From a candidate division FCPU426 bacterium (lineage in GTDB: Bacteria > Oederibacteriota > Muellerivitia > Muellerivitales > Muellerivitaceae): DNA of 64,000 nucleotides. The notes under the pieces were generated by a model, which searched no databases, was not told the DNA's origin, and worked only from the letters and a program-made list of their open reading frames with translations. Numbering within the stretch: position 1 is the stretch's first letter; every line of letters starts with the position of its first letter. The position numbers and the translations under genes were made by a program. Below, one piece after another: positions 3,488 through 51,444 of the stretch. The stretch spans positions 15,445 to 79,444 of the forward strand of contig PLZG01000093.1 in assembly GCA_003152075.1 (NCBI GenBank), in the 5' to 3' direction.

Positions 3488-3564
3488 GAAGAGGGCATAC
3501 GGTGAGCCACTATAAAAGTGGCCCACTAAAAAATCTTAGATTCAAACTAACCAAGGAGTCGTTT

Positions 3565-8249: not shown

Positions 8250-8434
8250 TTTCCCTCCTGAAAAACAGGGGATTCTCTTAATTTATTATCCCTTTTGAAC
8301 TAAAAGCTCATTATGAGTTGAGTCATAAAAAAGACCTCGGCCCTGCCCTATGATGAAAATGAACGGAAGAAAGATTGGATTCGAAACGAATTGAAATCGC
8401 TTGCAGCCTTCCGGATTTTTTCAACAAGGAGCAC

Positions 8435-12924: not shown

Positions 12925-13224
12925 TCAAAAAACCCGCGGGAAATAAACTTTTACATGGGCGACGTCGGGCATCAACAGGATCACCATAATGGCGAACAGA
13001 ACCAAGGGGAAGACGAAGATGATAATCACCACGGGCCCCTCCATTCGAAGACCCATATATTGGGCGACCACCAGTCCCGCCAGGACGAAAGCGACCCCAA
13101 AAATCACTAGGTTGTTCCACAAGGCCGGAAGGTGAAGTAACGCCTTTTCGACCGAGAAAAGCGCCAGGATAACCAAAAGGGTAAAAACCATCCCATGCTT
13201 CATGGAGACGGTTTTCGATTCCAT
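12925..13224 (-). CDS. Cytochrome c oxidase subunit IV (prokaryotic COX4 family), paralogue 2
   Basis: Three-TM small protein, paralogous to 14312..14614 (shared ..LHLP...NN..IF..AFV.AGLV..QYM.L..EG.. pattern). It is the last gene of the cox operon. Confidence 0.6.
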   Translation of the reverse strand: MESKTVSMKHGMVFTLLVILALFSVEKALLHLPALWNNLVIFGVAFVLAGLVVAQYMGLRMEGPVVIIIFVFPLVLFAIMVILLMPDVAHVKVYFPRVF

Positions 13225-13451
13225 TTTCCATCCTTTTAAAGCTGGTTTTAAAGGGCCTCTCCACCCCCAGGTTGAGGCCAAGCAACCACAGTATAAAAAC
13301 AGGGGAATAGGCCCAATATGACGCGGCTCATATAAGGGGGAACGGCAAATTTCACATTTAAGGGTTTTCGGGGGAAAGGCGGAACTAAAAGGAAAGAACG
13401 AGGATCGGCGAAAGAGAATTTTCAGGGTGGACGGGGTTTAAAAAATCTGGG

Positions 13452-13691
13452 TTATTCCTGATCCGACGGTAAATGACGGCGGACCCACCAGATCAAAGTT
13501 CCCGCCAAGACAAAAGGAACAGGCAAGAGAAACGCGACTGCCCACTGCAAACCATGCTTATAAGGTGTGGAATCCACGCACAAGGGACAAGCCCCCGCCA
13601 CCTTTGGCAGCAACAGCGCGATCATCCCTAAAGCGGGAAGGAGAGCGAGTTTAATTTTCCCGGTTTTTTTCAATTCAATCGTTGTTTTCAT
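13452..13691 (-). CDS. Small two-TM membrane protein with CPLC motif (possible Cu/haem assembly factor), hypothetical
   Basis: 79 aa. TM, CPLCVD, TM. Embedded between coxC2 and coxD2. Confidence 0.4.
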   Translation of the reverse strand: MKTTIELKKTGKIKLALLPALGMIALLLPKVAGACPLCVDSTPYKHGLQWAVAFLLPVPFVLAGTLIWWVRRHLPSDQE

Positions 13692-13707
13692 CAGATTCCA
13701 ATTTTCC

Positions 13708-14310
13708 TTAAATTAAATAGACCAAAAAGAAAAGAATGGGCCAAAGGCCGACCACGAAAAACCAATACATCCGGCAAAGCTCCACTCCCAGCGTGTTTTG
13801 GGCACTGTACTTCTCCTTCCATGCCTTATTCAAGACCCAAAGCAAGGCGATAAGGCCGCCCGTCACATGGACCGCGTGGATTCCCACCAGGCAATAGAAA
13901 AAACCGCCGAAGATGCTGGCGTGGACGGTGAGCCCGAAATGAAGAAGGCGGACCCATTCCGCCCCTTGGACAGCCAGGAAGATAAATCCCAAAACCGCCG
14001 TGGCTGTCAACAACCCCTTGAACAATTGGCTATTGGAGGCCTTGAGGGGTTTGAGGGCCAGAAAAAACGTGAGCCCGCTTAAAAGAAGGATCAATGTGTT
14101 CGCGGAGGTGACTTCCAGGGGGAGGCGAGGTTGGCCCGGTGGGGGCCAGGGCACGGGGCTGAAACGGAACATCACAAAGGAACTGATGAGCCCTGAGAAG
14201 AACATGATTTCGGCGATGATAAATAGGATGATTCCAAGCCTGGCTGGTTCCATGCGGCGATCGGAGGCTGGCCCGGCGGAAGGCCCCGAGCCGGAAACCG
14301 GCCCGTCCAT
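13708..14310 (-). CDS. Cytochrome c oxidase subunit III, paralogue 2
   Basis: Five or more TM segments. Subunit III signatures (..FF..GIHAVHVT.GLIALL..). The start was moved to an internal Met to avoid overlapping the upstream coxD. Confidence 0.75.
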   Translation of the reverse strand: MDGPVSGSGPSAGPASDRRMEPARLGIILFIIAEIMFFSGLISSFVMFRFSPVPWPPPGQPRLPLEVTSANTLILLLSGLTFFLALKPLKASNSQLFKGLLTATAVLGFIFLAVQGAEWVRLLHFGLTVHASIFGGFFYCLVGIHAVHVTGGLIALLWVLNKAWKEKYSAQNTLGVELCRMYWFFVVGLWPILFFLVYLI

Positions 14311-14311
14311 A

Positions 14312-14614
14312 TTAGAAGAACCTTCGAAGGAAATTGATCGAGAAGTGACAGACGTCGGGAATAAACAAGACAAGAAGGATGCCGAACAAGATGAAGGGGA
14401 TGATCATAATCCAATAGATGAGTTTTCCCTCCGATTTCAGGTCCATGTACTGGAAAAAGACCAGCCCAGCCATCACGAAGGCAATTGCGAAGATAGCAAC
14501 GTTGTTGGTCACGATGGGCAAATGGAGGAAAGTCACCCCTACCGCCGAAAGAGCCATCACCACAAGCACTGAAAATATCATCGTATGGTTATTGGAAGCC
14601 GTGGTTGAGTTCAT
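14312..14614 (-). CDS. Cytochrome c oxidase subunit IV, paralogue 1
   Basis: Three-TM 100-aa protein, paralogous to 12925..13224. Confidence 0.65.
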   Translation of the reverse strand: MNSTTASNNHTMIFSVLVVMALSAVGVTFLHLPIVTNNVAIFAIAFVMAGLVFFQYMDLKSEGKLIYWIMIIPFILFGILLVLFIPDVCHFSINFLRRFF

Positions 14615-14629
14615 TGATTCCTCCTGGGG

Positions 14630-15256
14630 TTAAGCTAAAAGATAAAGCATCGGGAACAGGAAAATCCAGACTACTTCAACGAAAGACCAGTAAATACCCG
14701 TAATGGCCACCCGGCCTTTCCAATTCCCCATCGATCCCGTTAAAGCCCTATTCAAGAGCAGGCCCAGAGCAACCAATCCACCCAGAATGTGGGTAGCGTG
14801 GATTCCTGTCATCAGGAAATAAAAGGACCAGAAACCACCGCTAGTGGGAAATTCACCATGAGCGAACTCAGCTGTGTACTCGAAAGCCTTAACGCCTAGA
14901 AAAAGCACACCCATGGCCATGGTCAGGACTAGGTACTTCTTGACGTTATCGTTGTTTTCCGCCCCTGCCGCACCAGAGGCTTTCATCATGAAAAAATTGC
15001 TGACGAGAAGAACCAACGAGTTAAGAGTGCCGGCGACCAGGTTCAGGTGTCGAGCCTCTTCGGACCACTCGGGATGAATCATGCGCATGAGGATGAAGGA
15101 ACCAAAGAGCCCCGCGAAAAGGACAATTTCGGAGGCGATCAGTGCCCAAATACCCAGCCGGCCCGCGGTCAATCCCGCCGGCGCCGAATTGTAACCTTCA
15201 GGACCCTCATTCTCGGGATAGTGGGGTGTCAATGGCAGGTTGGCGCTTTTATCCAT
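14630..15256 (-). CDS. Cytochrome c oxidase subunit III, paralogue 1
   Basis: Subunit III signatures (..FFMTGIHATHILGGLVAL..). Start set at MDKSANLP (ATG 15254-15256), just after the coxA stop. Confidence 0.8.
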   Translation of the reverse strand: MDKSANLPLTPHYPENEGPEGYNSAPAGLTAGRLGIWALIASEIVLFAGLFGSFILMRMIHPEWSEEARHLNLVAGTLNSLVLLVSNFFMMKASGAAGAENNDNVKKYLVLTMAMGVLFLGVKAFEYTAEFAHGEFPTSGGFWSFYFLMTGIHATHILGGLVALGLLLNRALTGSMGNWKGRVAITGIYWSFVEVVWIFLFPMLYLLA

Positions 15257-16943
15257 GGACCGTTTCTCCTTTGATGTTACTAGCTTGGGAATGCCAATCC
15301 TCGGATTCCCCGGGCTTGCTGTACTCGTAAGGACCACTCGTCACCACCGGAAGAACCGGTCCCCAGTTGCCATGGGGCGGGGGCGAATCGGCAAGCCATT
15401 CCAGGGTGTTGGATTGGTAGGGATTTTTCCCCGCTTTCGGACCGTGGTTCATGCTGAGGACGAGGTTCCAAAGGAAGACGGATTGCGAGGCAATCAGTGA
15501 AATGGCGCAAATCGTGGCGAATATATTCCAATTGGCGAACTGGTGGTACTGGGGATAAAAGGACGGATCAGCTATACGGCGGATCATGCCGCCGATACCC
15601 ACCCTGAATAAAGGCCAGAATGTGCCGTTGAAGAAGATGAAAGTAAGCGCCAAGTGCAACAGGCCCAGCTTCTCGTTGAGCTTGCGGCCGTACATCTTGG
15701 GGAACCAATAGTAAACCGCCGAAAAGCCCCCGAAGAAAACCGAGGGGAATAGGGTGTAGTGGAAGTGAGCCACCACGAAATAGGTGCCATGAAGGTAGAT
15801 ATCGACGGAGGCCGAACCCAAGAAGATGCCGGTCAATCCCCCGACCAGGAAGGTGGCAAGGAACCCTAGCATCCAAAGCATGGGCACCTCCAGGCGGATG
15901 GACCCGTGCCGAAGAGTGGCTAACATACAGAAAATGATGATGGCGAAGGGAATTGAAATGAGGATAGTGGTGATCGAGAAGGGCGTGGCCAGGATCGGGT
16001 TCAAGCCCGACAGGAACATATGATGGGCCCAAACGATGAAGCTCAGAAGGATGGCAGAAACCGTGCTCCACAGGATGAGTTTATAGCCAAAAATGGGCTT
16101 GCGGGTGAAGGTGGCCATTATGTCCAACCCCATCCCCAGGGCCGGGAAGAAAAGTACGTAAACCTCCGGATGGCCGAAGAACCAGAAAAGATGTTCCCAC
16201 AACATCGGCTCACCACCTTTGGCGGGCAGGAAGAAACCGGTGCCGAACATGTTGTCCATGATGAGCATAAAATCGCCAGCGATGAGCGGTCCCACCGAGA
16301 AAAAGAAAGTTACGGCGGAGGCTAGGAGAAACCAAACAGTCATGGGAATACGGGAATAGGTCATGCCCTTCGCGCGAAGGGTAATGGCCGTAACCAGGTA
16401 GTTCAAGCCGCCCAGGCTCGAGGAGAAAAAGGCCATAGCAAGAGCAAGCAGCCACAGGCACGCCCCCCACTTGACACCGGCGAATTCGGAGCTGGCGGAC
16501 AAGGGCGGATAACCTACCCAGCCTCCGGCCACCGGACCGCCCGGGACGAAAAAGGATGCAACCAATAACACGGCTCCGGCGAAAGTTAACCAGAAAGAAG
16601 CCATGTTCAGCTTCGGAAAAGCCATATCCCGCGCACCGATCATCAAGGGAATAAAAAAATTGGAGGGAAATGCCGACAAGAAAGGCATTCCCACGAAGAA
16701 GATCATAATGGTACCGTGCAAGGTGATGATGGCGTTGAACTTGTCCGGCGAAACCAGCCCAAAGAAAGGCGCCGGGACGTTGGGAAATGCCACTTCCCAA
16801 CGGATCAGGTAGGCCATGAACCCGCCCAAACAGGCCATGATAGTGGAGAGCAAAAGAAACTGCTTGCCGATCATCTTATGGTCGGTCGAAAAAATATAGT
16901 GGCTGATGAAACTCTGCTTGTGTTCGTGGGCGTCTTGGCTCAT
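15249..16943 (-). CDS. ctaD: Cytochrome c oxidase subunit I (haem-copper oxidase, A-family)
   Basis: 564 aa, 12 TM. Conserved WFFGHPEVY, the HH pair and other haem a / CuB ligand motifs. The start overlaps the coxB stop (ATGA). Confidence 0.95.
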   Translation of the reverse strand: MSQDAHEHKQSFISHYIFSTDHKMIGKQFLLLSTIMACLGGFMAYLIRWEVAFPNVPAPFFGLVSPDKFNAIITLHGTIMIFFVGMPFLSAFPSNFFIPLMIGARDMAFPKLNMASFWLTFAGAVLLVASFFVPGGPVAGGWVGYPPLSASSEFAGVKWGACLWLLALAMAFFSSSLGGLNYLVTAITLRAKGMTYSRIPMTVWFLLASAVTFFFSVGPLIAGDFMLIMDNMFGTGFFLPAKGGEPMLWEHLFWFFGHPEVYVLFFPALGMGLDIMATFTRKPIFGYKLILWSTVSAILLSFIVWAHHMFLSGLNPILATPFSITTILISIPFAIIIFCMLATLRHGSIRLEVPMLWMLGFLATFLVGGLTGIFLGSASVDIYLHGTYFVVAHFHYTLFPSVFFGGFSAVYYWFPKMYGRKLNEKLGLLHLALTFIFFNGTFWPLFRVGIGGMIRRIADPSFYPQYHQFANWNIFATICAISLIASQSVFLWNLVLSMNHGPKAGKNPYQSNTLEWLADSPPPHGNWGPVLPVVTSGPYEYSKPGESEDWHSQASNIKGETVHG

Positions 16944-17626
16944 TGGGCTCCTCCATGTTCTTCTTTATCTTTTGCGGCAAGCCAATCATCAAAAGTTTTT
17001 TGGTCGTCCACCTGCAAAACTCCTGTCATACGGGTATGGCCGAAACCACAGATTTCGTCGCAAACCAAATGAAAAGTTCCCACTTGGTTTGTGTCAAACC
17101 AGCCATTGATCAGCCGAAGGGGCATGACATCCTGCTTCAAGCGCACCTCGGGCAGGAAAAAATCATGAATGACATCCAGGGAAGTCATGATGATGTGGAT
17201 TTTCTTACCGACCGGCACATGCAATTCGCGGTAGGAGGAAATCGCCGCAGGAGTATCGAACTTACCATCCTTATCGGGATAAAAGAAAGTCCAGTCAAAC
17301 TGCTTGGCTTGCACCTTTACCGTAATATCACAGGGCGGCAGGTCTTCTTTAACATCAGCCCAAGTCTTGCCTCCCCGGAAGTCGAGGAACAGATCAATTC
17401 CCAGGATGATGACGGAAAAAACGATGATCCATTGGATTTGGACCCAAGTATCACCCGTCTCATACTTAGCGGTTGTCCCCTTCTTTTGGCGGTATCTGAC
17501 CACCAAGAAAACAAGATAACCTTCCATTACAACGAAGAAGAACCCAGTGATGTAATAAATCAGTTTTAGCATATTGTCGATATCAGGAGCGAATGACGAG
17601 AGTGACAGGGGCAGGGCATCAAGCAT
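16940..17626 (-). CDS. ctaC: Cytochrome c oxidase subunit II (CuA, no fused cytochrome c)
   Basis: Two N-terminal TM helices. Cupredoxin domain with CuA motif H...CDEICGFGHTRM (C-x3-C-G-x2-H-x2-M). First gene of the operon coxB-coxA-coxC-coxD-coxC'-orf-coxD'. Confidence 0.9.
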   Translation of the reverse strand: MLDALPLSLSSFAPDIDNMLKLIYYITGFFFVVMEGYLVFLVVRYRQKKGTTAKYETGDTWVQIQWIIVFSVIILGIDLFLDFRGGKTWADVKEDLPPCDITVKVQAKQFDWTFFYPDKDGKFDTPAAISSYRELHVPVGKKIHIIMTSLDVIHDFFLPEVRLKQDVMPLRLINGWFDTNQVGTFHLVCDEICGFGHTRMTGVLQVDDQKTFDDWLAAKDKEEHGGAQ

Positions 17627-20542: not shown

Positions 20543-20731
20543 TTATTTTTCGGGCCAGGGTGTGTTCTTATCCCTCCCGCTTTCCCGCGATGGATTGGAA
20601 AGGCTTTCCTCGTCGTCGGCAAAACGAACTTTTCCCCGTAGGACGCACCCTTTCATTCCGGGGACACAATCCCTGTTTGCCCTTTGGCAAAAATAATCCC
20701 CCGTTTGATAGGGGCATGACCAACTGGACAT
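20543..20731 (-). CDS. Small Cys4 protein (62 aa), paralogue A
   Basis: WSCPYQTGDYFCQRANRDCVPGMKGCVLRGKVRF: a C-x8-C-x6-C-x5-C core conserved with 53834..54043 (WSCRYQSGESYCDRVRVGCIPGMLGCALRGKVRF). Divergent from the Crp/Fnr gene. Confidence 0.45.
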   Translation of the reverse strand: MSSWSCPYQTGDYFCQRANRDCVPGMKGCVLRGKVRFADDEESLSNPSRESGRDKNTPWPEK

Positions 20732-20805
20732 GGATTCCGTTCCTTAAGCGCGGGCTTTTAAGTCACCCGACAGTGACATTCTTGAGCGAATCGGTTTCGG
20801 CCTAT

Positions 20806-21486
20806 ATGATGGGCATCATGAACAAGATCGATGCCCTGAGAAAAACGGAGATGTTCGGCTCCCTTTCGGGCGAGGAATTAAAAGTTGTCGCCAAATCCTG
20901 TGTGGAAAAACCCTTGAAAAAGGGCGAAACACTCTTTTGCGCGGGGGACGAGGCCCGGGGCCTTTACGTGATCGCGAAAGGTTCCTTGCGGGCTTTCCGG
21001 ACAAACGAGGACGGCCGGGAACAAGTCATCCACGTGGAGCGGGCCGGCACCACCATGGCCGAGGTCCCCGTTTTCGATGACCGGCCCTATCCCTCCACGG
21101 TGGTGGCGGAGGAGGACAGCGACGTCCTTTTCATTTCAAAAGCGGACGTGAAACGGCTATGCCTCCAACACCCGGCCATCGCCTTGTCGGCTTTGAAACT
21201 CCTGGCAGCTCGCCTCAGAAAAACGGCTGCCCTGGTTGAATCACTCTCCCTTCGTGAAGTCGACCAACGCCTGGCTGCTTTCCTCCTCCAGGAATTCAAG
21301 GAAAAGCGTTTGAAAAAACTCCAACTGCCGACCAATTCGGACATCGCAACCCGCCTAGGCTCGGTTCGGGAAGTGGTTTCCCGCGCCTTCGCCAAACTGG
21401 AATCCGAAAAACTGATCTCGGTCGACAAGCACCGCAACGCCGAACTGTTGAACGAGAAAGGTCTAGGCAGTTACTCCGGAAGTTGA
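20806..21486 (+). CDS. Crp/Fnr-family transcriptional regulator (no N-terminal Fe-S Cys cluster; Dnr/NnrR-like)
   Basis: cNMP-binding beta-roll (..GETLFCAGDEARGLYVIAKGSLRAF..) and C-terminal HTH (..TNSDIATRLGSVREVVSRAFAKL..). The start was chosen at MMGIMNK because the upstream GTG-initiated extension of the track ORF overlaps gene 20543..20731. Confidence 0.85.
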   Translation: MMGIMNKIDALRKTEMFGSLSGEELKVVAKSCVEKPLKKGETLFCAGDEARGLYVIAKGSLRAFRTNEDGREQVIHVERAGTTMAEVPVFDDRPYPSTVVAEEDSDVLFISKADVKRLCLQHPAIALSALKLLAARLRKTAALVESLSLREVDQRLAAFLLQEFKEKRLKKLQLPTNSDIATRLGSVREVVSRAFAKLESEKLISVDKHRNAELLNEKGLGSYSGS

Positions 21487-22206
21487 CCTTTCCCCAGCCA
21501 ATTTTTCCGCCATCGGAAAAAGTACGTTGTTTTCCAAATGGATGTGGTGATGCAGGTCCTCTTCCAGTTCAATGAAAGCCTGGTAAAAAGACCGGAAAGT
21601 GACGCAAGCGTCATCGGGCGGTGTAAAGTTCCCTGTCAATCGGCGCGCTTCCCTCAATTGTTCCCCTACCGTCTCGTGGTCAGCCATGAGAACAGCCCGG
21701 GGCCCCGCTTGGAATCCCTCAAAGGGGAAGAAAAGGCCTTCGTCACCTTCACCTTTTACCGATTTCTCCAAGGCCAAAAGATAGGGGAAGGCGATCTGTT
21801 CTTCTTTTAACATGTGGTGTTCCAATTCGTCGGCCATTTGGATGAAAACCTTTCGAACCGCCAAGAGGTCAGGATGGTTTTGTCCGTGAACCCGGGCCAC
21901 CTTTTCGGACAGTTTGTCGAGTAGGGCCAATTGCTTGCGGGTATAAACATGATGTTTTTCCAGAAGAAACTCCACCAACTCGGAAAGTTTTCGCTCGCTC
22001 CAGTCTTGTTCTCTCGAAGGGGATACAGGAAGACTCTCCAAGGAACGGACCACCTTTTCCACCGAAGCCCCCGCCTTGTCGCAAGCGTCCTTTAACGTCT
22101 TATTCCCCCCACAGCAGTAATCGATTTTCAAGCCTTCGAACAAAGGAATGGCGGACGGGTACTGAATCACGATACTGGCCACTGTTTGGTTGACTTCAGC
22201 TTTCAT
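21463..22206 (-). CDS. ytfE: Iron-sulfur cluster repair di-iron protein (RIC / YtfE / ScdA family)
   Basis: N-terminal ScdA_N motif (..FEGLKIDYCCGG..) followed by a hemerythrin-like di-iron domain (H..E/HxxxE ligands). Paralogous to 50710..51444. Convergent with the Crp/Fnr gene. Confidence 0.8.
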   Translation of the reverse strand: MKAEVNQTVASIVIQYPSAIPLFEGLKIDYCCGGNKTLKDACDKAGASVEKVVRSLESLPVSPSREQDWSERKLSELVEFLLEKHHVYTRKQLALLDKLSEKVARVHGQNHPDLLAVRKVFIQMADELEHHMLKEEQIAFPYLLALEKSVKGEGDEGLFFPFEGFQAGPRAVLMADHETVGEQLREARRLTGNFTPPDDACVTFRSFYQAFIELEEDLHHHIHLENNVLFPMAEKLAGERSTSGVTA

Positions 22207-43025: not shown

Positions 43026-43089
43026 CGGACACCATCAAAGTTGCTTGGCTTTGTCCGTCCCACCCCGCTATGGCGTCCACGCCATAGCG
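43024..43089 (+). terminator. Two hairpins downstream of plsC, including the perfect palindrome CGCTATGGCG-tcca-CGCCATAGCG
   Basis: GACGGACAC...GTCCGTC (43024-43059) and the 10-bp perfect stem at 43066-43089. No strong T-run, so this is a weak terminator or a protein-binding site. Confidence 0.35.
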
Positions 43090-43212
43090 CCCAAACCCCA
43101 TTTCTGTTTTCCTCCCCCTTCTTCCATTCCCAAAAATGCTTTTTCAAAGCTTTTTTCATTGGCACTTCCCTTGCTTTAACCAATGACGACTGTCCAAAGA
43201 CCCCGCGCCTTG

Positions 43213-43232
43213 TATATGACATCTGTCATATA
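43213..43232. promoter_or_regulatory. Perfect 20-bp palindrome TATATGAC-atct-GTCATATA about 67 bp upstream of the cupredoxin operon
   Basis: 8-N4-8 inverted repeat with TGAC-N4-GTCA core. It is the best-conserved instance of the motif found upstream of both RIC genes and pirin. Confidence 0.5.
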
Positions 43233-43298
43233 GAGATAAATGAAGCGGGGATATCTTTCTGGCAGCCGAACTCAGTTTTTAATAAAAGGAGATTTCCA

Positions 43299-43997
43299 AT
43301 GAAGCTTAAAAAAAGTTTAATAAAAGCCGGAAGCAAAAAAACTCTTCGGACTTTATTCGGCGAGCTGTCCATCGGATTGGGGCTGAGCCTCTTCCTGGCC
43401 TCTTTCGCTTTCGCTGGGGAAGGTGCCACAGTATCCGGAAACATCCAAGTGAAGAAAGCCTACGTGGAAACCACCGGGGCCAAGAGCGACAAGGACGTGG
43501 TGGTTTACCTGGTGTCGGCTGAGAAAGGCGCTTCAGCGGCCCCCGTCGAACACGCCAAAATGAACCAAAAAAACCTCGTTTTCGTACCTCACGTTCTGGC
43601 AGTTCAAAAGGGCACCACCGTCGATTTCCTCAACGAGGACGCCGTCAACCATAACGTCTCTTCCCCCGCCGCCTGCTGTTCCTTCGACCTGGGCCAATGG
43701 GGCAAGGGAGTGACAAAAAGCTATAAGTTCGACTCGACGGGCGTGGCTCCCCTCCTTTGCAGCCTGCATCCAGAAATGGCCGCCTCGGTAGTGGTTGTCG
43801 ACACCCCCTATTACACGACGGCCTCCCTTATCACCAACAACGCGGAAAAAAAGCAATCGGCCAAGTACTCCATCAAGGGCGTTCCAGCGGGTGATTACAC
43901 CTTGAAGGTATGGAATGGCAAGTTGGTAGCCGCCGATCAAAAGGTGACCGTCACCGCGACCGGCGCCAAGGCTGATATCGACATCCACAAGAAGTAA
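43299..43997 (+). CDS. Periplasmic type-1 (blue) copper cupredoxin with C-terminal carboxypeptidase-regulatory-like (Ig-like) domain
   Basis: RBS AAAGGAG 7 nt before the ATG. Signal peptide. T1Cu ligand set: His (..NEDAVNHNV..) then C-x2-H-x2-M (CSLHPEM, amicyanin/pseudoazurin-like spacing). The C-terminus has a GDYTLKVWNG beta-sandwich motif. Confidence 0.6.
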   Translation: MKLKKSLIKAGSKKTLRTLFGELSIGLGLSLFLASFAFAGEGATVSGNIQVKKAYVETTGAKSDKDVVVYLVSAEKGASAAPVEHAKMNQKNLVFVPHVLAVQKGTTVDFLNEDAVNHNVSSPAACCSFDLGQWGKGVTKSYKFDSTGVAPLLCSLHPEMAASVVVVDTPYYTTASLITNNAEKKQSAKYSIKGVPAGDYTLKVWNGKLVAADQKVTVTATGAKADIDIHKK

Positions 43998-44024
43998 TCG
44001 GGAAAACCGTAAAGGAGAGCGGCC

Positions 44025-44564
44025 ATGGACTTCACGAATAAAGGCAAATGGATTTCGGCGGTGCTGGTGGTGGTGGCAGGGCTGACCCTGCCGGCCTTCA
44101 CCACGCCGGCCGCTCCCAAACCCGAGCGCCGCGACTTCAGCATCGTGGCCCGCAAGTACGCCTACGACCCCCCGATCATCAAGGTCAACCAGGGGGACGA
44201 GGTGCACGTAAAATTCGCTTCTCGGGACGTGACCCACGGATTTTTCATGGAAGGCTACGATGTCGAAGCCCTTTCCGAGGCCGGCAAATCCACCATCCTC
44301 TTCCGGCACCCTTCGATGACGGGTAACTTCACCCCCGCCGACGAGATCATCTTCACTGCCGATAAGCGCGGTAAATTTCGTTATCGCTGTTCCATGACTT
44401 GCGGCTATATGCACCCCTTCATGTTGGGAGTAATGATCGTGCAGCCCAATTCCCTTTTCGGCCAGGCCCTGGGGCTCATGACCGGAATCCTGCTGGCTGG
44501 CTTCATCCTGGTTTGGCCCGCGGGTAAGATCACCCCGAAAGCGCCGGAAGGAGCCCGCTCATGA
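44025..44564 (+). CDS. Membrane-anchored stand-alone CuA-type cupredoxin (COX2-like copper centre, no haem)
   Basis: N-terminal TM. Cupredoxin domain with His (VTHGF) and CSMTCGYMHPFM, which matches the binuclear CuA signature C-x3-C-G-x2-H-x2-M exactly. C-terminal TM. The stop overlaps the next start (ATGA). Confidence 0.55.
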   Translation: MDFTNKGKWISAVLVVVAGLTLPAFTTPAAPKPERRDFSIVARKYAYDPPIIKVNQGDEVHVKFASRDVTHGFFMEGYDVEALSEAGKSTILFRHPSMTGNFTPADEIIFTADKRGKFRYRCSMTCGYMHPFMLGVMIVQPNSLFGQALGLMTGILLAGFILVWPAGKITPKAPEGARS

Positions 44565-45028
44565 CCCGCAAACTTGAGGAACTCTCCCCTAAGGAAATGC
44601 TGGCCCTGGCCATTTCCATCGAGCAGTCCAACCAAAAGGCCCTGCATAACTTCTCCGAGATGTTCAACGGATATGACGATCAGGTTTCCAAGAATTTCGC
44701 GGAAATGTCCGTGGAGGAAGGCCGCCACGAGCAGATCTTACTGGAAAAATTCAAGAACATGTTCAAGGGGCCTGTTCCGGAAATAAGTAACTTCGACGTT
44801 GAGGAAGTGGTTGAAGCCATTGACTTTGACGACTCCGAGCACTTGATCTTCGACAGCTTGAAGGCCAAGCAAGTTTACCAATTGGCTTACGAGGCCGAAA
44901 AAAGGGCCAAGAGTTTTTACGAGAAGGCCATGAAAACCGTGAAAAACAAGGAATTGGCAGTGCTATTCAAGGAACTGGCCGCAATGGAAGGCGATCACGC
45001 GAATTGGCTGGAAAACAAAATCAAGTAG
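44561..45028 (+). CDS. Rubrerythrin/ferritin-like diiron protein (cytoplasmic)
   Basis: Two E...ExxH half-sites (..IEQ..EEGRH.. and ..EAEKRAK..EGDH..) in a ~150-aa four-helix-bundle-sized protein. No signal peptide. Confidence 0.6.
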   Translation: MTRKLEELSPKEMLALAISIEQSNQKALHNFSEMFNGYDDQVSKNFAEMSVEEGRHEQILLEKFKNMFKGPVPEISNFDVEEVVEAIDFDDSEHLIFDSLKAKQVYQLAYEAEKRAKSFYEKAMKTVKNKELAVLFKELAAMEGDHANWLENKIK

Positions 45029-45038
45029 GAGTGAAACC

Positions 45039-46568
45039 ATGAGTGAAGCCATCAACCCCAATCTAACTCCCCAATCCGTTCCAAGCCCGGTTCCCATACC
45101 CGCTGTCGTCCGGTCGGCCCCAACGCCGCTGACCCCTCCACCCGCCCGAGAGGGTTGGCGCATTGACCTTTTAAAGATGTTCCCCTTGCTCAAGTGGGTG
45201 GTGAAACAACGCTGGTTCCAGTTCGTGGTAATCCTTCCCAACCTATTCCTTTTCCTGGTCTTCTTGGCCGCCGGAATTTGGGGCACCCCGGTGGGCAACC
45301 GTAATATCTTGATCGTCTTCGTTTGGATTTTTTGGTGGTTCCTCCTCATCAGTGCCATGGTGCCCTTCCTTTCTCGCATTTGGTGCACCGTTTGTCCCTT
45401 CCCCTTCTTTGGAGAATGGATCCAACGTGGTTCCCTAACCACCCCCAAAATGGCCACTCCCGGCGCCAAAGGCACCAAGATTGGTATCAATCGCTATTTC
45501 GGTCTGAACCTGCGGTGGCCCAAGGCTCTTTCCAATATTTGGATGCAGAACATCGGTTTCCTCGGCCTTTGCACCTTCAGCGCCTTTTATCTCACCCGGC
45601 CCATCGTCAGCGTGATCGTCCTGGGCAGCTTGATCGTGGTGGCTACCGTGCTCCACGTGATTTATCGCCAAAGGGCCTTCTGCAATTACGTCTGTCCTGT
45701 CAGCGGTTTCTTAAGCCTTTATGCCATGAGTTCCATGACCGAGGTTCGTTCCAAGGATGCCGATGTCTGCCTGAAGTGCCACGACAAGAGCTGTCTGGTG
45801 GGAAGCGAGAGGGGTTGGGGATGTCCCTGGTTCAACTTCCCCAGCAAGATGGAACGAAATAACTATTGCGGCATGTGCATGGAATGCATTAAGTCCTGTC
45901 CCCATGACAACATGACTGTGAATCTGCGGCCCTTCGCCGCCGACACCAAACTCAAAGGCTACGATGAGGCCTGGAAGGCCTTTATCATGCTGGCCCTAGC
46001 CCTGGCCTACAGCGTCATTTACCTGGGCCCTTGGGCTTTTTTCAAAAACCTGGCCAACTACACCGAAAGCGGTGTGGGTCTTCCCGCCTTTATCGGCTAC
46101 GCCCTGGCCCTTTGGGCATTGCCTATGGTAATCATTCCGAGCATCTTCTCGGCATTCCACTGGATCGCGCGCAAGGTTGCTGGAGCCGAGCCGAAACCTT
46201 GGAAAGAATCTTTCCTACTCATGGCCTATCCCCTGGTTCCGCTGGGACTCTTGGCTTGGATCGCCTTCAGCGTACCCCTCATCTTTATCAACGGCAGCTA
46301 CATCCTGGTCACCATGTCCGATCCCTTTGGCTGGGGCTGGGACCTTTTCCATACAGCTCACACGGCCTGGTCGCCCGTCGTGCCTCAGTTGATGCCCACC
46401 ATCCAGGTCTTCATTATGGCCCTGGGGCTGATCCTCACCTTGAAATCGACTTTCAAACAAGCCGGGAAGGTTTATGAGGACGCCAAAGCCAAGGTGCGGT
46501 TCGCCGCCCCCATGGCGATTTTTTACACCGCCATCGTGCTGTTATTCATCCAGCTTTACGTGAACTGA
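45039..46568 (+). CDS. NapH/MauN/CcoG/NosR-C-like polytopic membrane protein with two [4Fe-4S] ferredoxin motifs
   Basis: Two membrane CxxCP motifs (IWCTVCPFP, FCNYVCPVSG), the hallmark of the NapH family. A soluble loop carries CLKCHDKSC...CPW and CGMCMECIKSCP cluster-binding motifs. About 10 TM helices. Pro-rich N-terminus. Confidence 0.65.
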   Translation: MSEAINPNLTPQSVPSPVPIPAVVRSAPTPLTPPPAREGWRIDLLKMFPLLKWVVKQRWFQFVVILPNLFLFLVFLAAGIWGTPVGNRNILIVFVWIFWWFLLISAMVPFLSRIWCTVCPFPFFGEWIQRGSLTTPKMATPGAKGTKIGINRYFGLNLRWPKALSNIWMQNIGFLGLCTFSAFYLTRPIVSVIVLGSLIVVATVLHVIYRQRAFCNYVCPVSGFLSLYAMSSMTEVRSKDADVCLKCHDKSCLVGSERGWGCPWFNFPSKMERNNYCGMCMECIKSCPHDNMTVNLRPFAADTKLKGYDEAWKAFIMLALALAYSVIYLGPWAFFKNLANYTESGVGLPAFIGYALALWALPMVIIPSIFSAFHWIARKVAGAEPKPWKESFLLMAYPLVPLGLLAWIAFSVPLIFINGSYILVTMSDPFGWGWDLFHTAHTAWSPVVPQLMPTIQVFIMALGLILTLKSTFKQAGKVYEDAKAKVRFAAPMAIFYTAIVLLFIQLYVN

Positions 46569-46583
46569 AAAGGGAGGATCAAC

Positions 46584-47552
46584 ATGAAATTCAGGGAAAT
46601 TATCTCCAGCGTCCTCGCGGTAGTGGCCGTGGTCGGGGCCTTCGCCATCCCCTTTGCTTACCAGAAGCAAAGAATGACCAGTGACCATAATGTGCGGACA
46701 ATCACCTTGACCGGTTTGGCCCCGCAAGGCATTTGGACCCAGGATGAGGTTAACGGCGGCAACTATTGGAAAGCCCATTTCAAACCCGCCGAGCTCAACC
46801 TTAAGGCGGGCGAACAGATCCGTCTGATCCTTCGCAGTGCCGACGTAGTCCACCGCTTTTACATGCCCCAATTGGGAATCGGCCCTATTGAGCTTGTTCC
46901 CGGCCATACCGAGGTGGTCAATTTCAAAGCCGACAAGGAGGGAATCTATCCTTACTACTGTACAGCTGTCTGCGGAGATTGCCATTTCCACATGCTAAAC
47001 ATGAGGGGATTGGTTGCCATCGGGAAAGAGATCGACACCAAAACCGCCCCCATCATCAATGAGCCTCTTTGCATGGTGAATATTACTTCGGACCTGCCTT
47101 CCTTCACGGACATCACCCAAAAGGGACATTTCCTGTTCCAAACCAGGGGTTGCGTCACTTGCCACGGGGTCGATGGCGCGGGAGGAATCCCCAACTTCAA
47201 TTACGTACGTGGTACCGTTCCGGCTTTGAACACCTTGGCCTCCAAGATGTCCCTGGGTAGCAAGGATGAAGTGGAGGCCTTTACTAAAGCCCTGGAAATA
47301 AAAGAAGGGCCCGCGAAGGACAAACCCGAACCAGGGCTCTCCAATTGGCCGCTTTCTTTCGCCCAGTATCAGTCGGTTGTAAAAACCATTGAGGGTGGCA
47401 GTCCGCCCTTGAAGGCTGACCCGAATGGGCCCGAACCTCCCCTTTTTATGCCGAGCTGGAAGGAAAACCTCGACCACGAACAGATCAATTCGATAATCGC
47501 CTTTCTTATCTCAGAGCAGAAGTTCGAGGAACACACGGGCTGGGGAAACTAG
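46584..47552 (+). CDS. Cytochrome oxidase subunit II-like CuA protein with fused C-terminal monohaem cytochrome c (caa3-type subunit II architecture, orphan)
   Basis: Single N-terminal TM. CuA signature H(RFYMP)...CTAVCGDCHFHM. C-terminal CVTCH plus Met ligand (LFMPSW). No subunit I gene is adjacent. Confidence 0.7.
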   Translation: MKFREIISSVLAVVAVVGAFAIPFAYQKQRMTSDHNVRTITLTGLAPQGIWTQDEVNGGNYWKAHFKPAELNLKAGEQIRLILRSADVVHRFYMPQLGIGPIELVPGHTEVVNFKADKEGIYPYYCTAVCGDCHFHMLNMRGLVAIGKEIDTKTAPIINEPLCMVNITSDLPSFTDITQKGHFLFQTRGCVTCHGVDGAGGIPNFNYVRGTVPALNTLASKMSLGSKDEVEAFTKALEIKEGPAKDKPEPGLSNWPLSFAQYQSVVKTIEGGSPPLKADPNGPEPPLFMPSWKENLDHEQINSIIAFLISEQKFEEHTGWGN

Positions 47553-47632
47553 TAGAATCTCGTCGGTAACCGGGCGCGGGTGGCGCGCTAATTAAAGCTG
47601 AACAGTAAATTTGTAACCTTGGGAGGGTGTAA

Positions 47633-49012
47633 ATGAGTAATCGTTCAATAAAAGCGATCCTGATCGGGATTTTAGGATGTATTGGTTTGATTGTCTGCGC
47701 GGCTCCCGCCCAGGCATTGCCAACCTTTGCCCGGCAGACAGGCATGTCCTGCGCGGCCTGCCACACGGTTTATCCCGAACTGACGACTTACGGGAGAACC
47801 TTCAAGCTCAACGGCTACACCACCAACAATTCCGATTCACTCAAGGACGGTGCGGATGAGACGGGGTACCGGTTGAATATCAGCAACACTCCCCCGATCG
47901 CGGCCATGCTTCAGGTTGCCGACGTATTTACCCATGCTCCTCAAACAGGCGGTTTAGTGGCCGCCAACTCGGATAACAACGGCACTTTGGAGTTTCCCAG
48001 TCAGTTCAGTCTTTTCTACGCGGGAGCCATCTCCCCGAAGATGGGGGCCTTCGTCCAGTTTACTTACGACTCTGGCTCAGGCTCTTTTGGCATGGACAAT
48101 ACGGACATCCGTATTGCCGACCGTTTTCAAGTGGCCAACACCGATCTGGTCTTGGGCTTAACCCTCAATAACAATCCCACCGTACAGGATATTTTTAACA
48201 ACATTCCGGCTTGGGGCTTCCCCTATGCGACAGGCAAATCGGCCATTACTCCCGCAACCGCCAGCATGATCGAGAGTCTGGGTGGTAGTGTCGGAGGATT
48301 GGGTCTTTACGCCTTTTGGAACCAGCTTTTATACGCTGAAATTTCAGCATACCGCACGGCTCCCCAAGGCATGGAAGCCGTGGGTGCCCCAGACATCCAG
48401 GGTTACGCTCCTTATTGGAGGGTGGCTTTGACCAAGGATTTCGAGACCAATTCCTTTGAAATCGGCGCTTTCGGGATGAACGCTAATACTTATCCAAACA
48501 GCGGGGATCCCACTCTGTTCACTCAAAATAATGTGGACGATATTGGGGTAGACGGTCAGTTCCAGTTCGTGGGCAAGGAACATCAATTGACGGTCAAAGG
48601 AAGTTGCATTTGGGAAAACCAGAAATTGGGCTATTCCAGTCCTGTAACGGTTATCGACCCCAGCGGACCGACGACCACCATCAGCTCAGTCGCGGCCAAT
48701 GCTACCGACACCTTCACGACCGCCAAGGCGGATATCACCTATTATTACGACCGTAAAGTCGGGGCAACGGTGGGCTATTTCACCAACTATGGTTCCGGCG
48801 ACACGGGCCTTTATTCCACCGCCAGCGGAACACCCGATAGCGCCGGCTGGGTGATCGAGGTGAATTACGTGCCTTGGTATAACACGAAATTCTCCTTGCA
48901 ATACACTATGTACGATAAGTTCAACGGTTCCGTGAATAATTACGATACCGTCCCTGGCCGTAACGCTTCGGATAACAACACCCTAATGGCAATGGCTTGG
49001 TTGATGTACTAA
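47633..49012 (+). CDS. cyc2: Cyc2-like fused monohaem cytochrome / outer-membrane beta-barrel porin (paralogue 2)
   Basis: Signal peptide. CxxCH (CAACH) within ~15 aa of the mature N-terminus. The N-terminal motif LPTFARQTGMSCAACH..TYGRTFKLNGY parallels VPMFARMYSYNCTMCH..KFGYNFRAAGY of the gene at 2219. The ~400-aa G/T/N/Y-rich barrel ends ..AWLMY. Confidence 0.6.
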   Translation: MSNRSIKAILIGILGCIGLIVCAAPAQALPTFARQTGMSCAACHTVYPELTTYGRTFKLNGYTTNNSDSLKDGADETGYRLNISNTPPIAAMLQVADVFTHAPQTGGLVAANSDNNGTLEFPSQFSLFYAGAISPKMGAFVQFTYDSGSGSFGMDNTDIRIADRFQVANTDLVLGLTLNNNPTVQDIFNNIPAWGFPYATGKSAITPATASMIESLGGSVGGLGLYAFWNQLLYAEISAYRTAPQGMEAVGAPDIQGYAPYWRVALTKDFETNSFEIGAFGMNANTYPNSGDPTLFTQNNVDDIGVDGQFQFVGKEHQLTVKGSCIWENQKLGYSSPVTVIDPSGPTTTISSVAANATDTFTTAKADITYYYDRKVGATVGYFTNYGSGDTGLYSTASGTPDSAGWVIEVNYVPWYNTKFSLQYTMYDKFNGSVNNYDTVPGRNASDNNTLMAMAWLMY

Positions 49013-49037
49013 TCTCTCTTTCAATTTTTCAGGAGAG

Positions 49038-49072
49038 AAGGCCGGGTTCCATTGGAATCCGGCCTTTTTTAT
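49038..49072 (+). terminator. Rho-independent terminator after cyc2-like paralogue 2
   Basis: AAGGCCGGGTTCCattgGGAATCCGGCCTTTTTT. Confidence 0.65.
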
Positions 49073-49135
49073 TATGACCGCTATCATCTTTTCCCTTACC
49101 TTTCAGACTAAAATGGATCTATCAGGGAGAGTTCA

Positions 49136-49798
49136 ATGGCACTAAACAAGATGACTGTCCCAAATGAAAAAAAGCGGTTCTTCACACCCTTATTAATAGA
49201 ATGGCTGGGGGCCTTGGTTTTATTCTCCTTACTCGCCCCTTCCTTAGCCTTGCCCCCGGCCCAAACTACCCCGGTAAATTCAGTCCACAAAAAAGACCCC
49301 CTTGTCTTGAAAGGCAAACAGCTTTACGCCGACTTGAGGTGCTTTTACTGCCACAAACTCAAGGGTCGGGGTGGTACGGTCGGCCCAGCCCTGGACAACG
49401 TGGGTTTCAGGCGCACCCAGGAATGGATGGCCCACCACTTCCGTGATCCCAAGGAAGTCTCTCAGGGAACCAAAATGATCAACCTCAAGCTGAAAGACAG
49501 CCAGGTTCAGGCCCTGGTGGCTTACATGAATAGCCTGGGAGGCTATACCTTCACCCCCCAAGCTCCGGATCTTTATAAAGCTAACTGTGCCGCTTGTCAT
49601 TCCCTCAACGGCGAGAGCGCGAATGCCACCGACTTGTCCAAGGAAGGAAAATTCCGGGATGTGGACTTCCTCATGGATTACATCCGGGATCCCGCCAACG
49701 TGAACTCGGAGGCCAAAATGATAAAATTTGAGGGTGTTTTGACCGAAGCCCAAATCAAGGATATCGCCGCTTACCTTTACAAGCAGAGCCGCAAATAA
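49136..49798 (+). CDS. Periplasmic dihaem cytochrome c (c4-like)
   Basis: Signal peptide; CFYCH and CAACH. About 45% identical over its length to the C-terminal domain of the cytochrome b at 5743..7374 (shared ..KGRGGTVGPALDNVGFRRTQEWMAHHFRDPKEVSQGTKM..). Confidence 0.8.
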   Translation: MALNKMTVPNEKKRFFTPLLIEWLGALVLFSLLAPSLALPPAQTTPVNSVHKKDPLVLKGKQLYADLRCFYCHKLKGRGGTVGPALDNVGFRRTQEWMAHHFRDPKEVSQGTKMINLKLKDSQVQALVAYMNSLGGYTFTPQAPDLYKANCAACHSLNGESANATDLSKEGKFRDVDFLMDYIRDPANVNSEAKMIKFEGVLTEAQIKDIAAYLYKQSRK

Positions 49799-49974
49799 AG
49801 GCGGTTTTCAATCCGCTAAATGATCTGGATCATATTCCCCTTTTCCGCGAAACATTAGGATACAACCTGTATTGCAGTTCGGGACCAAAACCCCGAGCTT
49901 GAACGGCGGAAAAGTATCAAATAAAAAAGGAGGCGGTCTTAACCAAAGTTAAAATCGACTCTGTTGGAATTTGG

Positions 49975-50015
49975 AAAACAAGGCCGGACCTGGCAAGGCT
50001 CCGGCCTTTTCTTTT
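49975..50015. terminator. Bidirectional intrinsic terminator
   Basis: aaaacaAGGCCGGAcctggcaaggcTCCGGCCttttctttt, flanked by an A-run upstream and a T-run downstream. Confidence 0.6.
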
Positions 50016-50709: not shown

Positions 50710-51444
50710 CTAATCTAAAAAACCCATCTGATTGGCCCGCTTCAAGAGAATGTTATTCTCCAAGTGGAGATGTTGAATGTTGTCTTTTTCCAGTTCCAGG
50801 AGGGCATCATAAAGGGGCTGGAGCATCATCCGCCTGGATTCGGGCGCGCGAAAATGGTCGGTGAGCCGGTCGATTTCCTTCCATTCCCTGTCCGTCATTC
50901 CATGCTCCCACTCCAACACGCGCAAGGGATGGTTGAAGGAGTCGTATTTACTGAAAGTTTGGGGAAGGGGCCGGTCGTGCAGAAGGCACTGTTCTGCTTC
51001 AATTAAGTAAGGAAAGACCACCTCTTCTTCGCGCCTCAAGTGGTTCTCCATTTCATCGGCCATAGTGTTGAAAAGACTATGGATGGTGGCTAGTTCGGGG
51101 GGCGGCCCCCCGGGACCCGTAACCACCTTATACATCAGACCTTTGACACGCCTCATTTGGGACCGAGCGTAGGTGTGGTGTTTCTTGAGGATGTAACCGA
51201 TCAGCTCAGCTAGTGGTTCCTGTCGCCAGTCCCGCTCCTTATACCATTCCTTTGGGGCAGGCTCGATTTTTTCCAGGGCCTCGGTAACCTCCTCCAATGG
51301 GATGCCGACGTAATAACAAGCGTCTTTCAAAGTCCGACCGCCCTCACAGCAATAGTCGATCCCGAATTTCTCGAATAGGGGGATGGACTCCTTCATTTCC
51401 ACCGCAATTTCAGCGACGCTTTGGGATGGATTAATCTTCGCCAT
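50710..51444 (-). CDS. ytfE: Iron-sulfur cluster repair di-iron protein (RIC/YtfE family), paralogue B
   Basis: N-terminal ..FEKFGIDYCCEGG.. ScdA_N motif plus a hemerythrin-like domain. Collinear with 21463..22206. Confidence 0.8.
   Translation of the reverse strand: MAKINPSQSVAEIAVEMKESIPLFEKFGIDYCCEGGRTLKDACYYVGIPLEEVTEALEKIEPAPKEWYKERDWRQEPLAELIGYILKKHHTYARSQMRRVKGLMYKVVTGPGGPPPELATIHSLFNTMADEMENHLRREEEVVFPYLIEAEQCLLHDRPLPQTFSKYDSFNHPLRVLEWEHGMTDREWKEIDRLTDHFRAPESRRMMLQPLYDALLELEKDNIQHLHLENNILLKRANQMGFLD

Follow-up and report, generated by a model that had tools for sequence, protein, structure and literature searches.

A conserved copper-rich gene module tied to a Cyc2-family cytochrome-porin, a candidate envelope electron-transfer pathway

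We describe a copper-rich gene module found in a 64,000-nucleotide stretch of contig PLZG01000093.1 from a candidate division FCPU426 bacterium (hereafter the window; gene coordinates are positions in it). The locus comprises seven genes, g1 to g7, all on the forward strand. Judged from its sequence, the module is a Cyc2-type envelope electron-transfer pathway, and it probably provides a path for electrons between membrane and cell surface in which no conventional oxidase takes part. Comparison with other genomes confirmed that the module is real and conserved across phyla, and not a one-off.

The first of the seven genes is predicted to encode a secreted type-1 (blue) cupredoxin that carries an Ig-like CarboxypepD_reg/fn3_3 domain at its C-terminus (g1, 43299-43997, 232 residues, Copper-bind PF00127). 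It is followed by genes for a stand-alone membrane-anchored CuA protein (g2, 44025-44564, 179 residues, a cupredoxin with CSMTCGYMHPFM), a cytoplasmic rubrerythrin-like (erythrin-type) diiron four-helix protein (g3, 44561-45028, 155 residues, PF02915), a NapH/MauN-like membrane polyferredoxin (g4, 45039-46568, 509 residues, Fer4_5 twice and a weak TIGR02163 match), and a COX2-like CuA domain that is fused to a monohaem cytochrome c and anchored by a single helix (g5, 46584-47552, 322 residues, PF00116 and PF00034). The last two encode a Cyc2-family outer-membrane fused cytochrome-porin (g6, 47633-49012, 459 residues, no Pfam match, a single CAACH) and a dihaem c4-type cytochrome, membrane-anchored or secreted (g7, 49136-49798, 220 residues, two cytochrome c domains). 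Successive genes are spaced by 27, -4 (an overlap), 10, 15, 80, and 123 nucleotides, and each is preceded by a GGAG-type ribosome-binding site. Profile matches in Pfam and NCBIfam bear out the gene identities and domain content that had been proposed in an earlier note on this DNA. The two terminators named there also fold strongly when compared with shuffled sequence: one hairpin lies 3' of g6 (49034-49070, forward strand, folding free energy [dG] -27.2 kcal/mol, z -6.45, then a U run) and the other 3' of g7 (49980-50008, forward strand, dG -22.5 kcal/mol, z -3.56, then a U-rich tail).

A scan of one genome per species returned 172 relatives, and the best 80 loci were studied; the locus counts given here refer to 82 non-redundant loci, defined by tblastn and clustering of open reading frames (ORFs). 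The core g2-g4-g5 is syntenic in these 82 loci, which come from more than 10 phyla, and the order g2-(g3)-g4-g5 is kept in essentially all of them; g1 is present in 61 and g3 in 49. The g4 protein is 50-65% identical across Acidobacteriota, Planctomycetota, Myxococcota, Marinimicrobia, Desulfobacterota, Ignavibacteria/Kapabacteria, Verrucomicrobiota, Omnitrophota, and Binatia, and a profile search run against 1.84 billion representative proteins turned up 345 representatives of its family at E<=1e-30. The closest relatives (74-90% identity) are metagenome-assembled genomes, and most carry the name candidate division FCPU426, a phylum of soil and peat about which little is known. A protein of 420-540 residues with the Cyc2 motif (e.g., AVPSFARKYQTSCATCHEAFPRL) lies within the block in 44 of the 82 loci, and in 33 of the 55 that have full flanks. 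It stands upstream of g1 in most phyla, whereas the FCPU426 clade has a different Cyc2 subtype downstream of g5. This difference in subtype and position suggests that Cyc2 was recruited independently in the FCPU426 clade, and the presence of two Cyc2 subtypes on the same module argues for functional coupling. At none of the 82 loci does a gene for COX1, the haem-copper subunit I, lie within 8 kb of g4, and neither the window operon nor the conserved block encodes NosZ, NosD, NosF, or NosY. The gene order recurs in other genomes together with cyc2, and the module is, as the earlier note proposed, a coherent Cyc2-linked redox unit and not a routine variant of a nos or cox assembly cluster.

The assignment of g6 draws on a published description in which a Cyc2 protein has a signal peptide, a single CXXCH, and a length of at least 365 residues, with the motif AxPxFAR[Q/K][T/Y] just before the CXXCH, PxL four residues after it, and a 16-strand porin that is structurally OprO/OprP-like (Keffer 2021, PMC8406198). 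The g6 protein has the signal peptide, the length, the upstream motif, the PxL, and a predicted 16-strand OprO/OprP-like barrel. Its sequence reads ...AQ-ALPTFARQT-GMS-CAACH-TVY-PEL, with CxxCH occurring once, and its AlphaFold2 model is an OprP-like beta-barrel (pLDDT 77.9). Among 38 homologues, down to 43% identity, F32, Q35, T36, C40, C43, H44, P48, and L50 are invariant. By sequence and predicted fold, then, g6 is a Cyc2-family protein, and because its CxxCH is invariant in the 38 homologues and lies inside the published motif, the possibility that it is an ordinary porin falls away. The g6 protein matches no Pfam or NCBIfam model. Its family is large, with more than 3,400 matches in the homologue search, and the neighbours of distant homologues are cyc2 with a cytochrome c gene, or cyc2 with Rieske and cytochrome b-c genes.

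Three of the remaining proteins carry predicted copper sites. The g1 protein scores 27.7 bits against PF00127 (cut-off 21.2), has a signal-like N-terminus, and shows the H...C-x2-H-x2-M ligand set of the plastocyanin/azurin fold; in an alignment of its homologues, the type-1 ligands H118, C154, H157, and M160 are kept in 76-77 of 77. The CuA ligand set, H followed by C-x3-C-[GS]-x2-H-x2-M, is present in both g2 and g5. In g2, the motif CSMTCGYMHPFM fits C-x3-C-G-x2-H-x2-M, and the ligands H71, C122, C126, H130, and M133 are kept in 71-72 of 72 aligned homologues. In g5, H90, C126, C130, and H134 are kept in 78 of 79; the column for the Met ligand is misaligned in this alignment, and the Met is present in the window sequence. 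Ligand conservation of this strength is what one would expect if the copper sites of g1, g2, and g5 are working redox centres. About half of the g5 homologues carry the haem c domain.

The CuA domains of g2 and g5 score best against CoxB and NosZ CuA models, and NosL copper chaperones adjoin six loci, which raises the question of whether the module is a routine accessory, assembly, or split-subunit cluster of a haem-copper oxidase or nitrous-oxide reductase. We consider this very improbable. Both proteins fall below the cut-off of the CoxB equivalog TIGR02866 (147.7 bits), g5 at 63.1 bits and g2 at 25.8 bits, and in place of the two N-terminal transmembrane helices of CoxB, g5 has a single helix and g2 has one at either end, with the cupredoxin domain between them placed in the periplasm. 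The strong conservation of the CuA and type-1 ligands, the lack of COX1 at the 82 loci, and the failure to see a NosZ propeller or NosD there also argue against an accessory role. Moreover, the window has its own complete aa3-type cox operon, with its own COX2 besides COX1 and two COX3 genes, at 13708-17626; this operon had been placed at 12925-17626, and the interval 12925-13281 is instead a small unrelated ORF. A related suggestion, that the module feeds or assembles a canonical oxidase in trans, is likewise not supported.

In Pfam and NCBIfam profile searches, g4 matches only the NapH/MauN family, with two Fer4_5 matches and 27.9 bits against TIGR02163 (cut-off 213). It has the four-helix core of that family with two CxxCP-type and two 4Fe-4S motifs, and CTVCP, CNYVCP, C244/C247/C252/C262, and C277/C280/C283/C287 are all invariant in the homologue alignment. 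Of the two CxxCP motifs previously read in g4, the first (CTVCP) is exact and the second (CNYVCP) is CxxxCP; both 4Fe-4S motifs stand. A conserved C-terminal extension adds about 200 residues and 4-5 helices, and a loop placed in the periplasm, SDPFGWGW, is also conserved. The NapH family cut-off is not reached, no NapG-like gene lies within the conserved block, sequence and fold searches found no solved relative, and the homologue alignment contains no invariant histidine pair. The g3 protein has no signal peptide, and its gene overlaps the g2 stop codon by 4 nucleotides. It scores 53.7 bits against PF02915 (cut-off 22.8), resembles the N-terminal ferritin-like domain of MbfA in a profile match, and has two ExxH motifs (EEGRH and EGDH) that fit a diiron four-helix bundle of the two-E...ExxH type; we call it erythrin-like because it lacks a rubredoxin domain.

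Gene fusions connect g4 with both sides of the membrane. At six loci, g2 and g4 form one polypeptide. Many database representatives of the g4 family are 600-700 residues long, with the g4 profile starting at residue ~160-200, and all six that were inspected (P0242, P0248, P0249, P0251, P0253, and P0259) have an N-terminal g2-like cupredoxin, with the full CuA motif found by pattern search in four. Other N-terminal fusions bring two cupredoxins, a cytochrome c, a cytochrome c554, a YHS domain, or a TlpA-like thioredoxin; TlpA-type proteins aid CuA maturation. In at least six representatives (P0243, P0249, P0259, P0272, P0275, and P0286), a GltD-like NAD(P)H flavoprotein lies in or beside the cytoplasmic part of g4. 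It consists of Pyr_redox_2, plus Fer4_20 in five, and is inserted into g4 in five; P0272 joins the flavoprotein to the C-terminal half of g4 only. The N-terminal g2-like cupredoxin and the flavoprotein occur together in P0249 and P0259, with the full CuA motif in P0249 only, where a single chain runs from CuA (residues 1-168) through the N-terminal half of g4 and the flavoprotein to the C-terminal half of g4. In nine loci, a GltD-like gene stands on its own after g5. With CuA in the periplasm and the g4 N-terminus in the cytoplasm, the g2-g4 fusions imply that the CxxCP-type motifs and the 4Fe-4S domain would face the cytoplasm, and the flavoprotein and CuA fusions together indicate that g4 joins periplasmic high-potential centres to cytoplasmic redox partners.

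How electrons flow through the module can be proposed from these features. The direction that we tentatively infer, giving it a little less than an even chance, is export from quinol or an NAD(P)H/cytoplasmic donor to Cyc2 and an acceptor at the surface. The g4 protein would take electrons from menaquinol, ubiquinol, or a cytoplasmic donor, which in some relatives is the built-in NAD(P)H flavoprotein, and would pass them to the CuA of g2, then to the CuA and haem c of g5, and on to the type-1 copper of g1. The single haem of the Cyc2 protein g6 would then reduce a soluble high-potential acceptor at the cell surface, and periplasmic peroxidases might draw on the same pool. The g3 protein would be an accessory partner of g4 or a protector of its iron-sulfur clusters, and g7 would link the periplasmic pool to two complexes that other parts of the window encode, the bc complex and the aa3 oxidase. 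Taken as a whole, the module would be a copper-based extracellular electron transfer route, in effect a complex III analogue joined to an outer-membrane conduit.

Several observations lead us to favour export. The only family matched by g4 is NapH/MauN, whose characterised members pass quinol electrons outward to enzymes of the periplasm, among them NosZ with its CuA site. For the flavoprotein fusions, transfer would be spontaneous only from NAD(P)H (~-320 mV) to CuA (~+250 mV). Many carriers belong to phyla that use menaquinone, and its reduction from the copper centres would be strongly uphill. One locus (L087) sits in an island of multihaem cytochromes, and the dihaem peroxidases that adjoin the module at six loci need periplasmic electrons. 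The g4 homology, the flavoprotein fusions, and the multihaem island all point outward. Iron oxidation, which the earlier note put forward as a candidate role of the module, is not supported.

Other points weigh against export. The only demonstrated activity of Cyc2 is Fe(II) oxidation, in which electrons flow inward. The copper centres (~+250 to +350 mV) could reduce only high-potential acceptors, and g3 has no clear role in an export chain. The g4 protein has no obvious membrane-spanning cofactor to take electrons across, a quinone loop being our simplest guess for their passage, and the AlphaFold2 model of g4 is poor (pLDDT 62.5). The partners that vary from locus to locus also fit a module that acts as a sink rather than a source, since Cyc2, arsenite oxidase, Rieske/cytochrome b, and alternative complex III are all textbook donors to a pool at the level of cytochrome c.

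AioAB arsenite oxidase and two CCP_MauG peroxidase-family genes accompany the module in six loci of Planctomycetota and Lindowbacteria (L086 [= L017], L049, L050, L058, L061, and L070). In L086 (1389-20178), the order is PBP-like, sensor kinase, sigma-54 regulator, g2-g3-g4-g5-g1-g1-CCP-CCP-aioB-aioA-cytochrome c, the first three genes resembling AioXSR. A Rieske/cytochrome b partner is present in 8-9 loci, usually with the GltD-like iron-sulfur flavoprotein gene right after g5. Alternative complex III is the partner in three loci; in L087 it is followed by cyc2-g1-g2-g4-g5-g3 and by MtrC-type or Geobacter-type multihaem cytochromes. As a further observation, genes for a GltD-like flavoprotein, a Rieske protein, a cytochrome b, and a large multi-cytochrome c protein adjoin the module in L025, L027, L028, L042, L048, L078, and L083, where the Rieske/cytochrome b group lies downstream of g5 except in L083, in which it lies upstream. 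These neighbourhoods recall the Rieske/cytochrome b complexes with a link to NAD(P) that have been proposed in anammox bacteria and in Nitrospira.

The reverse direction would have Cyc2 oxidise Fe(II) or another soluble reductant and pass electrons through g1, g5, g2, and g4 to a sink. The sink could be g3, reducing O2 or H2O2 in the cytoplasm so that the module works without haem-copper as a terminal oxidase or peroxidase and generates membrane potential; or it could be the quinone pool, reduced by uphill flow. All tested Cyc2 homologues oxidise Fe(II), and the Cyc1-like dihaem g7 follows g6 as in the neutrophilic Cyc2 pathway. AioAB (with its AioXSR-like control), Rieske/cytochrome b, and alternative complex III donate to the cytochrome c pool and are normally encoded beside a terminal oxidase; the CuA and haem c layout of g5 is that of caa3 subunit II, an electron entry point; and g3, present in 49 loci, comes from a peroxide-reducing family. 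FtrB (a cupredoxin) and FtrD (a polyferredoxin) are proposed to work inward in FtrABCD iron uptake. We nevertheless judge inward flow less likely than export. Reducing menaquinone from the copper centres would be uphill by more than 300 mV, movement of electrons into the cell opposes the membrane potential, and no transmembrane cofactor appears among the invariant residues of g4. The NAD(P)H-flavoprotein fusions cannot run inward without bifurcation, g3 is missing from 33 of the 82 loci, and a Gallionellaceae pangenome paper makes no mention of the module.

The CCP_MauG genes could instead mean that the module is a redox defence hub, in which electrons from quinol or NAD(P)H go to periplasmic peroxidases and to g3 for detoxification of peroxide or O2, with Cyc2 as a scavenger at the surface. 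Many module carriers are anaerobes, g3 is rubrerythrin-like, and a CRP/FNR-type motif is common to the operon and to genes for RIC/ScdA (site 51520), hemerythrin (8313), and pirin (55372). Peroxidase genes, however, follow the module in only 6 of the 82 loci, against 44 with Cyc2, and a five-centre copper/haem chain with an outer-membrane porin is elaborate for detoxification; this role therefore seems improbable to us.

Neighbouring genes in a different set of loci would suit metal handling, that is, reductive or oxidative acquisition of iron or copper at the envelope, akin to iron uptake of the FtrABCD/EfeUOB type, which depends on an oxidase, or to cupric reduction of the CcoG type, with Cyc2 as a metal-permeable porin. 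CcoG is a polyferredoxin that acts as a cupric reductase. The six loci with NosL belong to Desulfobacterota and Verrucomicrobiales; one of them, L060 from the cultured Desulfoluna limicola, adds an ABC ATPase, a MacB/FtsX-type permease, and an FtrD-like (PF10080) protein, and some others add one or another of these. A YHS metal-binding domain is fused to one g4 relative, and g3 resembles the iron-binding domain of the exporter MbfA. Against this, the conserved core has no Ftr1/EfeU-type permease or metal transporter, the NosL and ABC genes are more simply explained as maturation factors for the three copper sites, and sigma-54 two-component control is atypical for metal uptake, where a Fur-type or CueR-type site would be usual. 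We regard metal handling as a long shot.

We give a fair, though less than even, chance to the reading that the core g2-g4-g5 is an unrecognised class of respiratory membrane complex, a CuA-headed, haem-free polyferredoxin that links cytoplasmic partners (an NAD(P)H flavoprotein in some lineages, a diiron protein in others) to the surface by way of blue copper and Cyc2. Were this so, many uncultured phyla would have a copper-based route of extracellular electron transfer, and g2-g4-g5 might conserve energy as a redox loop or serve as a terminal oxidase free of haem-copper.

The control region upstream of g1 contains three regulatory elements. A perfect sigma-54 (-24/-12) promoter, TGGCAC-N5-TTGCT, lies on the forward strand at 43160-43175, 124 nucleotides 5' of g1; it is the sole match in 64 kb at <=1 mismatch and is on the correct strand. 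Equivalents stand in the same place in two relatives, TGGTAT-N5-TTGCT in L004 and TGGCAT-N5-TTGCT in L007. Farther upstream, the palindrome TATGGCG-N4-CGCCATA (43069-43086, forward strand) is the only match in the window, with 0.13 expected, and is kept exactly 5' of the operon in L003, L004, and L007; it is likely a binding site for a sigma-54 enhancer-binding protein. At 32 of the 82 loci, the module is flanked by a sigma-54 response regulator, in most cases together with a sensor kinase. No gene for a sigma-54 activator was found in the 64-kb window; relatives have one adjoining the operon. In other phyla, simple sigma-54 patterns were detected 5' of cyc2 in 3-5 of 34 cases, with ORF starts crudely called.

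The third element is a CRP/FNR-type palindrome with 9-bp arms, TATATGACA-TC-TGTCATATA, at 43213-43232 (strand not assigned). It had been described as a single perfect 20-bp palindrome; it is indeed a CRP/FNR-type site, one of the three elements, and imperfect, since its centre, TC, is non-palindromic and 18 of 20 positions are self-complementary. Related half-sites lie 5' of g1 in L004, L007, L008, and L010. The core ATGAC-N4-GTCAT has 10 sites in the window at <=1 mismatch, against 0.93 expected, and the 14-bp yATGAC-N4-GTCATA sites fall at 1987, 8313, 13318, 30445, 43216, 49074, 51520, 55372, 58668, and 63357. Those at 43216, 49074, and 51520 precede g1, g7, and a RIC/ScdA gene, respectively; 1987, 8313, and 30445 precede the second Cyc2-like, hemerythrin, and H+-pyrophosphatase genes; and 55372 and 58668 precede the pirin and P-type ATPase genes. 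The site before g7, ATGACCGCTATCAT (49074-49087, one mismatch), lies directly past the terminator and 49 nucleotides before the gene. We therefore read the palindrome as a real CRP/FNR-type site within a candidate 10-site regulon. The cox operon was considered as a member and dropped, as what follows the 13318 site is not cox but a small ORF together with AurF-like and desaturase genes. A CRP/FNR-family regulator without the FNR-type cysteine cluster is encoded at 20560-21486 and may bind the ATGAC-N4-GTCAT sites. Expression of the module would thus depend on the sigma-54 promoter and the upstream palindrome, with the CRP/FNR-type regulon as a second layer of control.

Other genes of the window touch on the regulon and on g6 and g7. 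It contains two RIC/ScdA-type diiron iron-sulfur repair genes (21463-22206 and 50710-51444) and a hemerythrin gene (8375-8941). The hemerythrin gene and the RIC/ScdA gene at 50710-51444 have regulon sites; the one at 21463-22206 has only a weaker TGAC-N4-GTCA upstream (22270). These genes hint at a theme of nitrosative or oxidative stress. A second, divergent Cyc2-like gene, AVPMFARMYSYNCTMCH, lies at 2219-3487 and is followed by genes for a monohaem cytochrome c (3502-3957), a Rieske protein (5240-5743), and a cytochrome b-dihaem c fusion (5743-7374); a cyc2-Rieske-cytochrome b-c layout also surrounds a g6 homologue in another lineage (L090). The g7 protein, which we view as analogous to Cyc1, has two cytochrome c domains, each type of evidence agreeing with its two CxxCH motifs. 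It shares 48.5% identity with the dihaem c domain at the C-terminus of that fusion and is therefore a free-standing paralogue of the bc complex's cytochrome. A Shine-Dalgarno-like AAAGGAGG stands near 49926, within the ~180 nucleotides that separate the g7 stop codon from the second terminator (49799-49979).

Iron oxidation in metagenomes is inferred mainly with Cyc2 as the genetic marker, and beyond the classic iron oxidisers the proteins that partner Cyc2 in the periplasm and inner membrane are, to our knowledge, not established. Since 44 of the 82 loci couple Cyc2 to the module and none has an oxidase, many environmental cyc2 hits may reflect a process other than aerobic iron oxidation, conceivably one in which electrons flow the other way. 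The module also offers a handle on the NapH/NosR/MauN polyferredoxins, whose mechanism is poorly understood, as the fusions hold CuA and an NAD(P)H flavoprotein on opposite sides of the membrane. Direct testing is possible because one carrier, Desulfoluna limicola ASN36 (cluster at about 5.553-5.570 Mb of NZ_AP024488.1), is cultured.

We found no description of the module in the open-access literature, including the main Cyc2 papers, in keeping with the earlier note's view that the combination is undescribed. Two possible precedents were considered and set aside. A link to clade III lactonase-type NosZ was suggested by weak L-NosZ matches to CuA and by YVTN propellers near six loci; it was rejected because no propeller-CuA protein lies in the conserved block and the described clade III gene contexts differ. 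A 'polyferredoxin' reported with three hypothetical genes in Ca. Tenderia electrophaga, in regions syntenic with Mariprofundus ferrooxydans, comes with no domain detail and no mention of copper proteins; we guess that it is CcoG-like and do not take it as the module.

The nearest known systems each share part of the module. Like the rus operon of Acidithiobacillus ferrooxidans (cyc2-cyc1-coxBACD-rus) and the neutrophilic Cyc2-Cyc1 pathway, it brings an outer-membrane Cyc2 and a CuA protein together, within one gene neighbourhood, with a blue-copper protein (g1, as against rusticyanin) and a dihaem c4 cytochrome (g7, as against Cyc1). Unlike these, the module has no oxidase subunit I, III, or IV, either here or in the 82 relatives; it has two orphan CuA proteins, with a NapH-like polyferredoxin and a diiron protein in place of the oxidase, and its phyla are mostly not known iron oxidisers. 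The caa3 subunit II resembles g5 in having a membrane-anchored CuA cupredoxin fused to a monohaem cytochrome c, whereas g5 has one N-terminal helix rather than two and no subunit I nearby, and about half of its orthologues lack the haem domain.

NapGH, NosGH, and NosR share with g4 the four-helix core, the paired CxxCP-type motifs, and the two cytoplasmic 4Fe-4S sites, and in nos systems the electron acceptor also bears CuA. In contrast to these, g4 scores 28 versus 213 bits and has an extra C-terminal domain of 4-5 helices, and the module lacks a NapG/NosG partner, NosZ, and NapAB and tethers CuA directly to g4. FtrABCD likewise joins a cupredoxin of the periplasm to a NapH-like polyferredoxin of the membrane, in the setting of iron redox chemistry; the module differs in having no Ftr1 permease or P19 and in its copper sites, which are CuA and classical type-1. 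Finally, the mau cluster and the Planctomycetota variant L086 both have a type-1 cupredoxin (amicyanin in mau), a dihaem CCP_MauG enzyme, and a NapH-family polyferredoxin (MauN), but the module has no methylamine dehydrogenase (MADH) subunits and mau clusters have neither CuA proteins nor Cyc2. The joining of two orphan CuA proteins, a blue-copper protein, a NapH-like polyferredoxin, and Cyc2 sets the module apart from all of these nearest systems.

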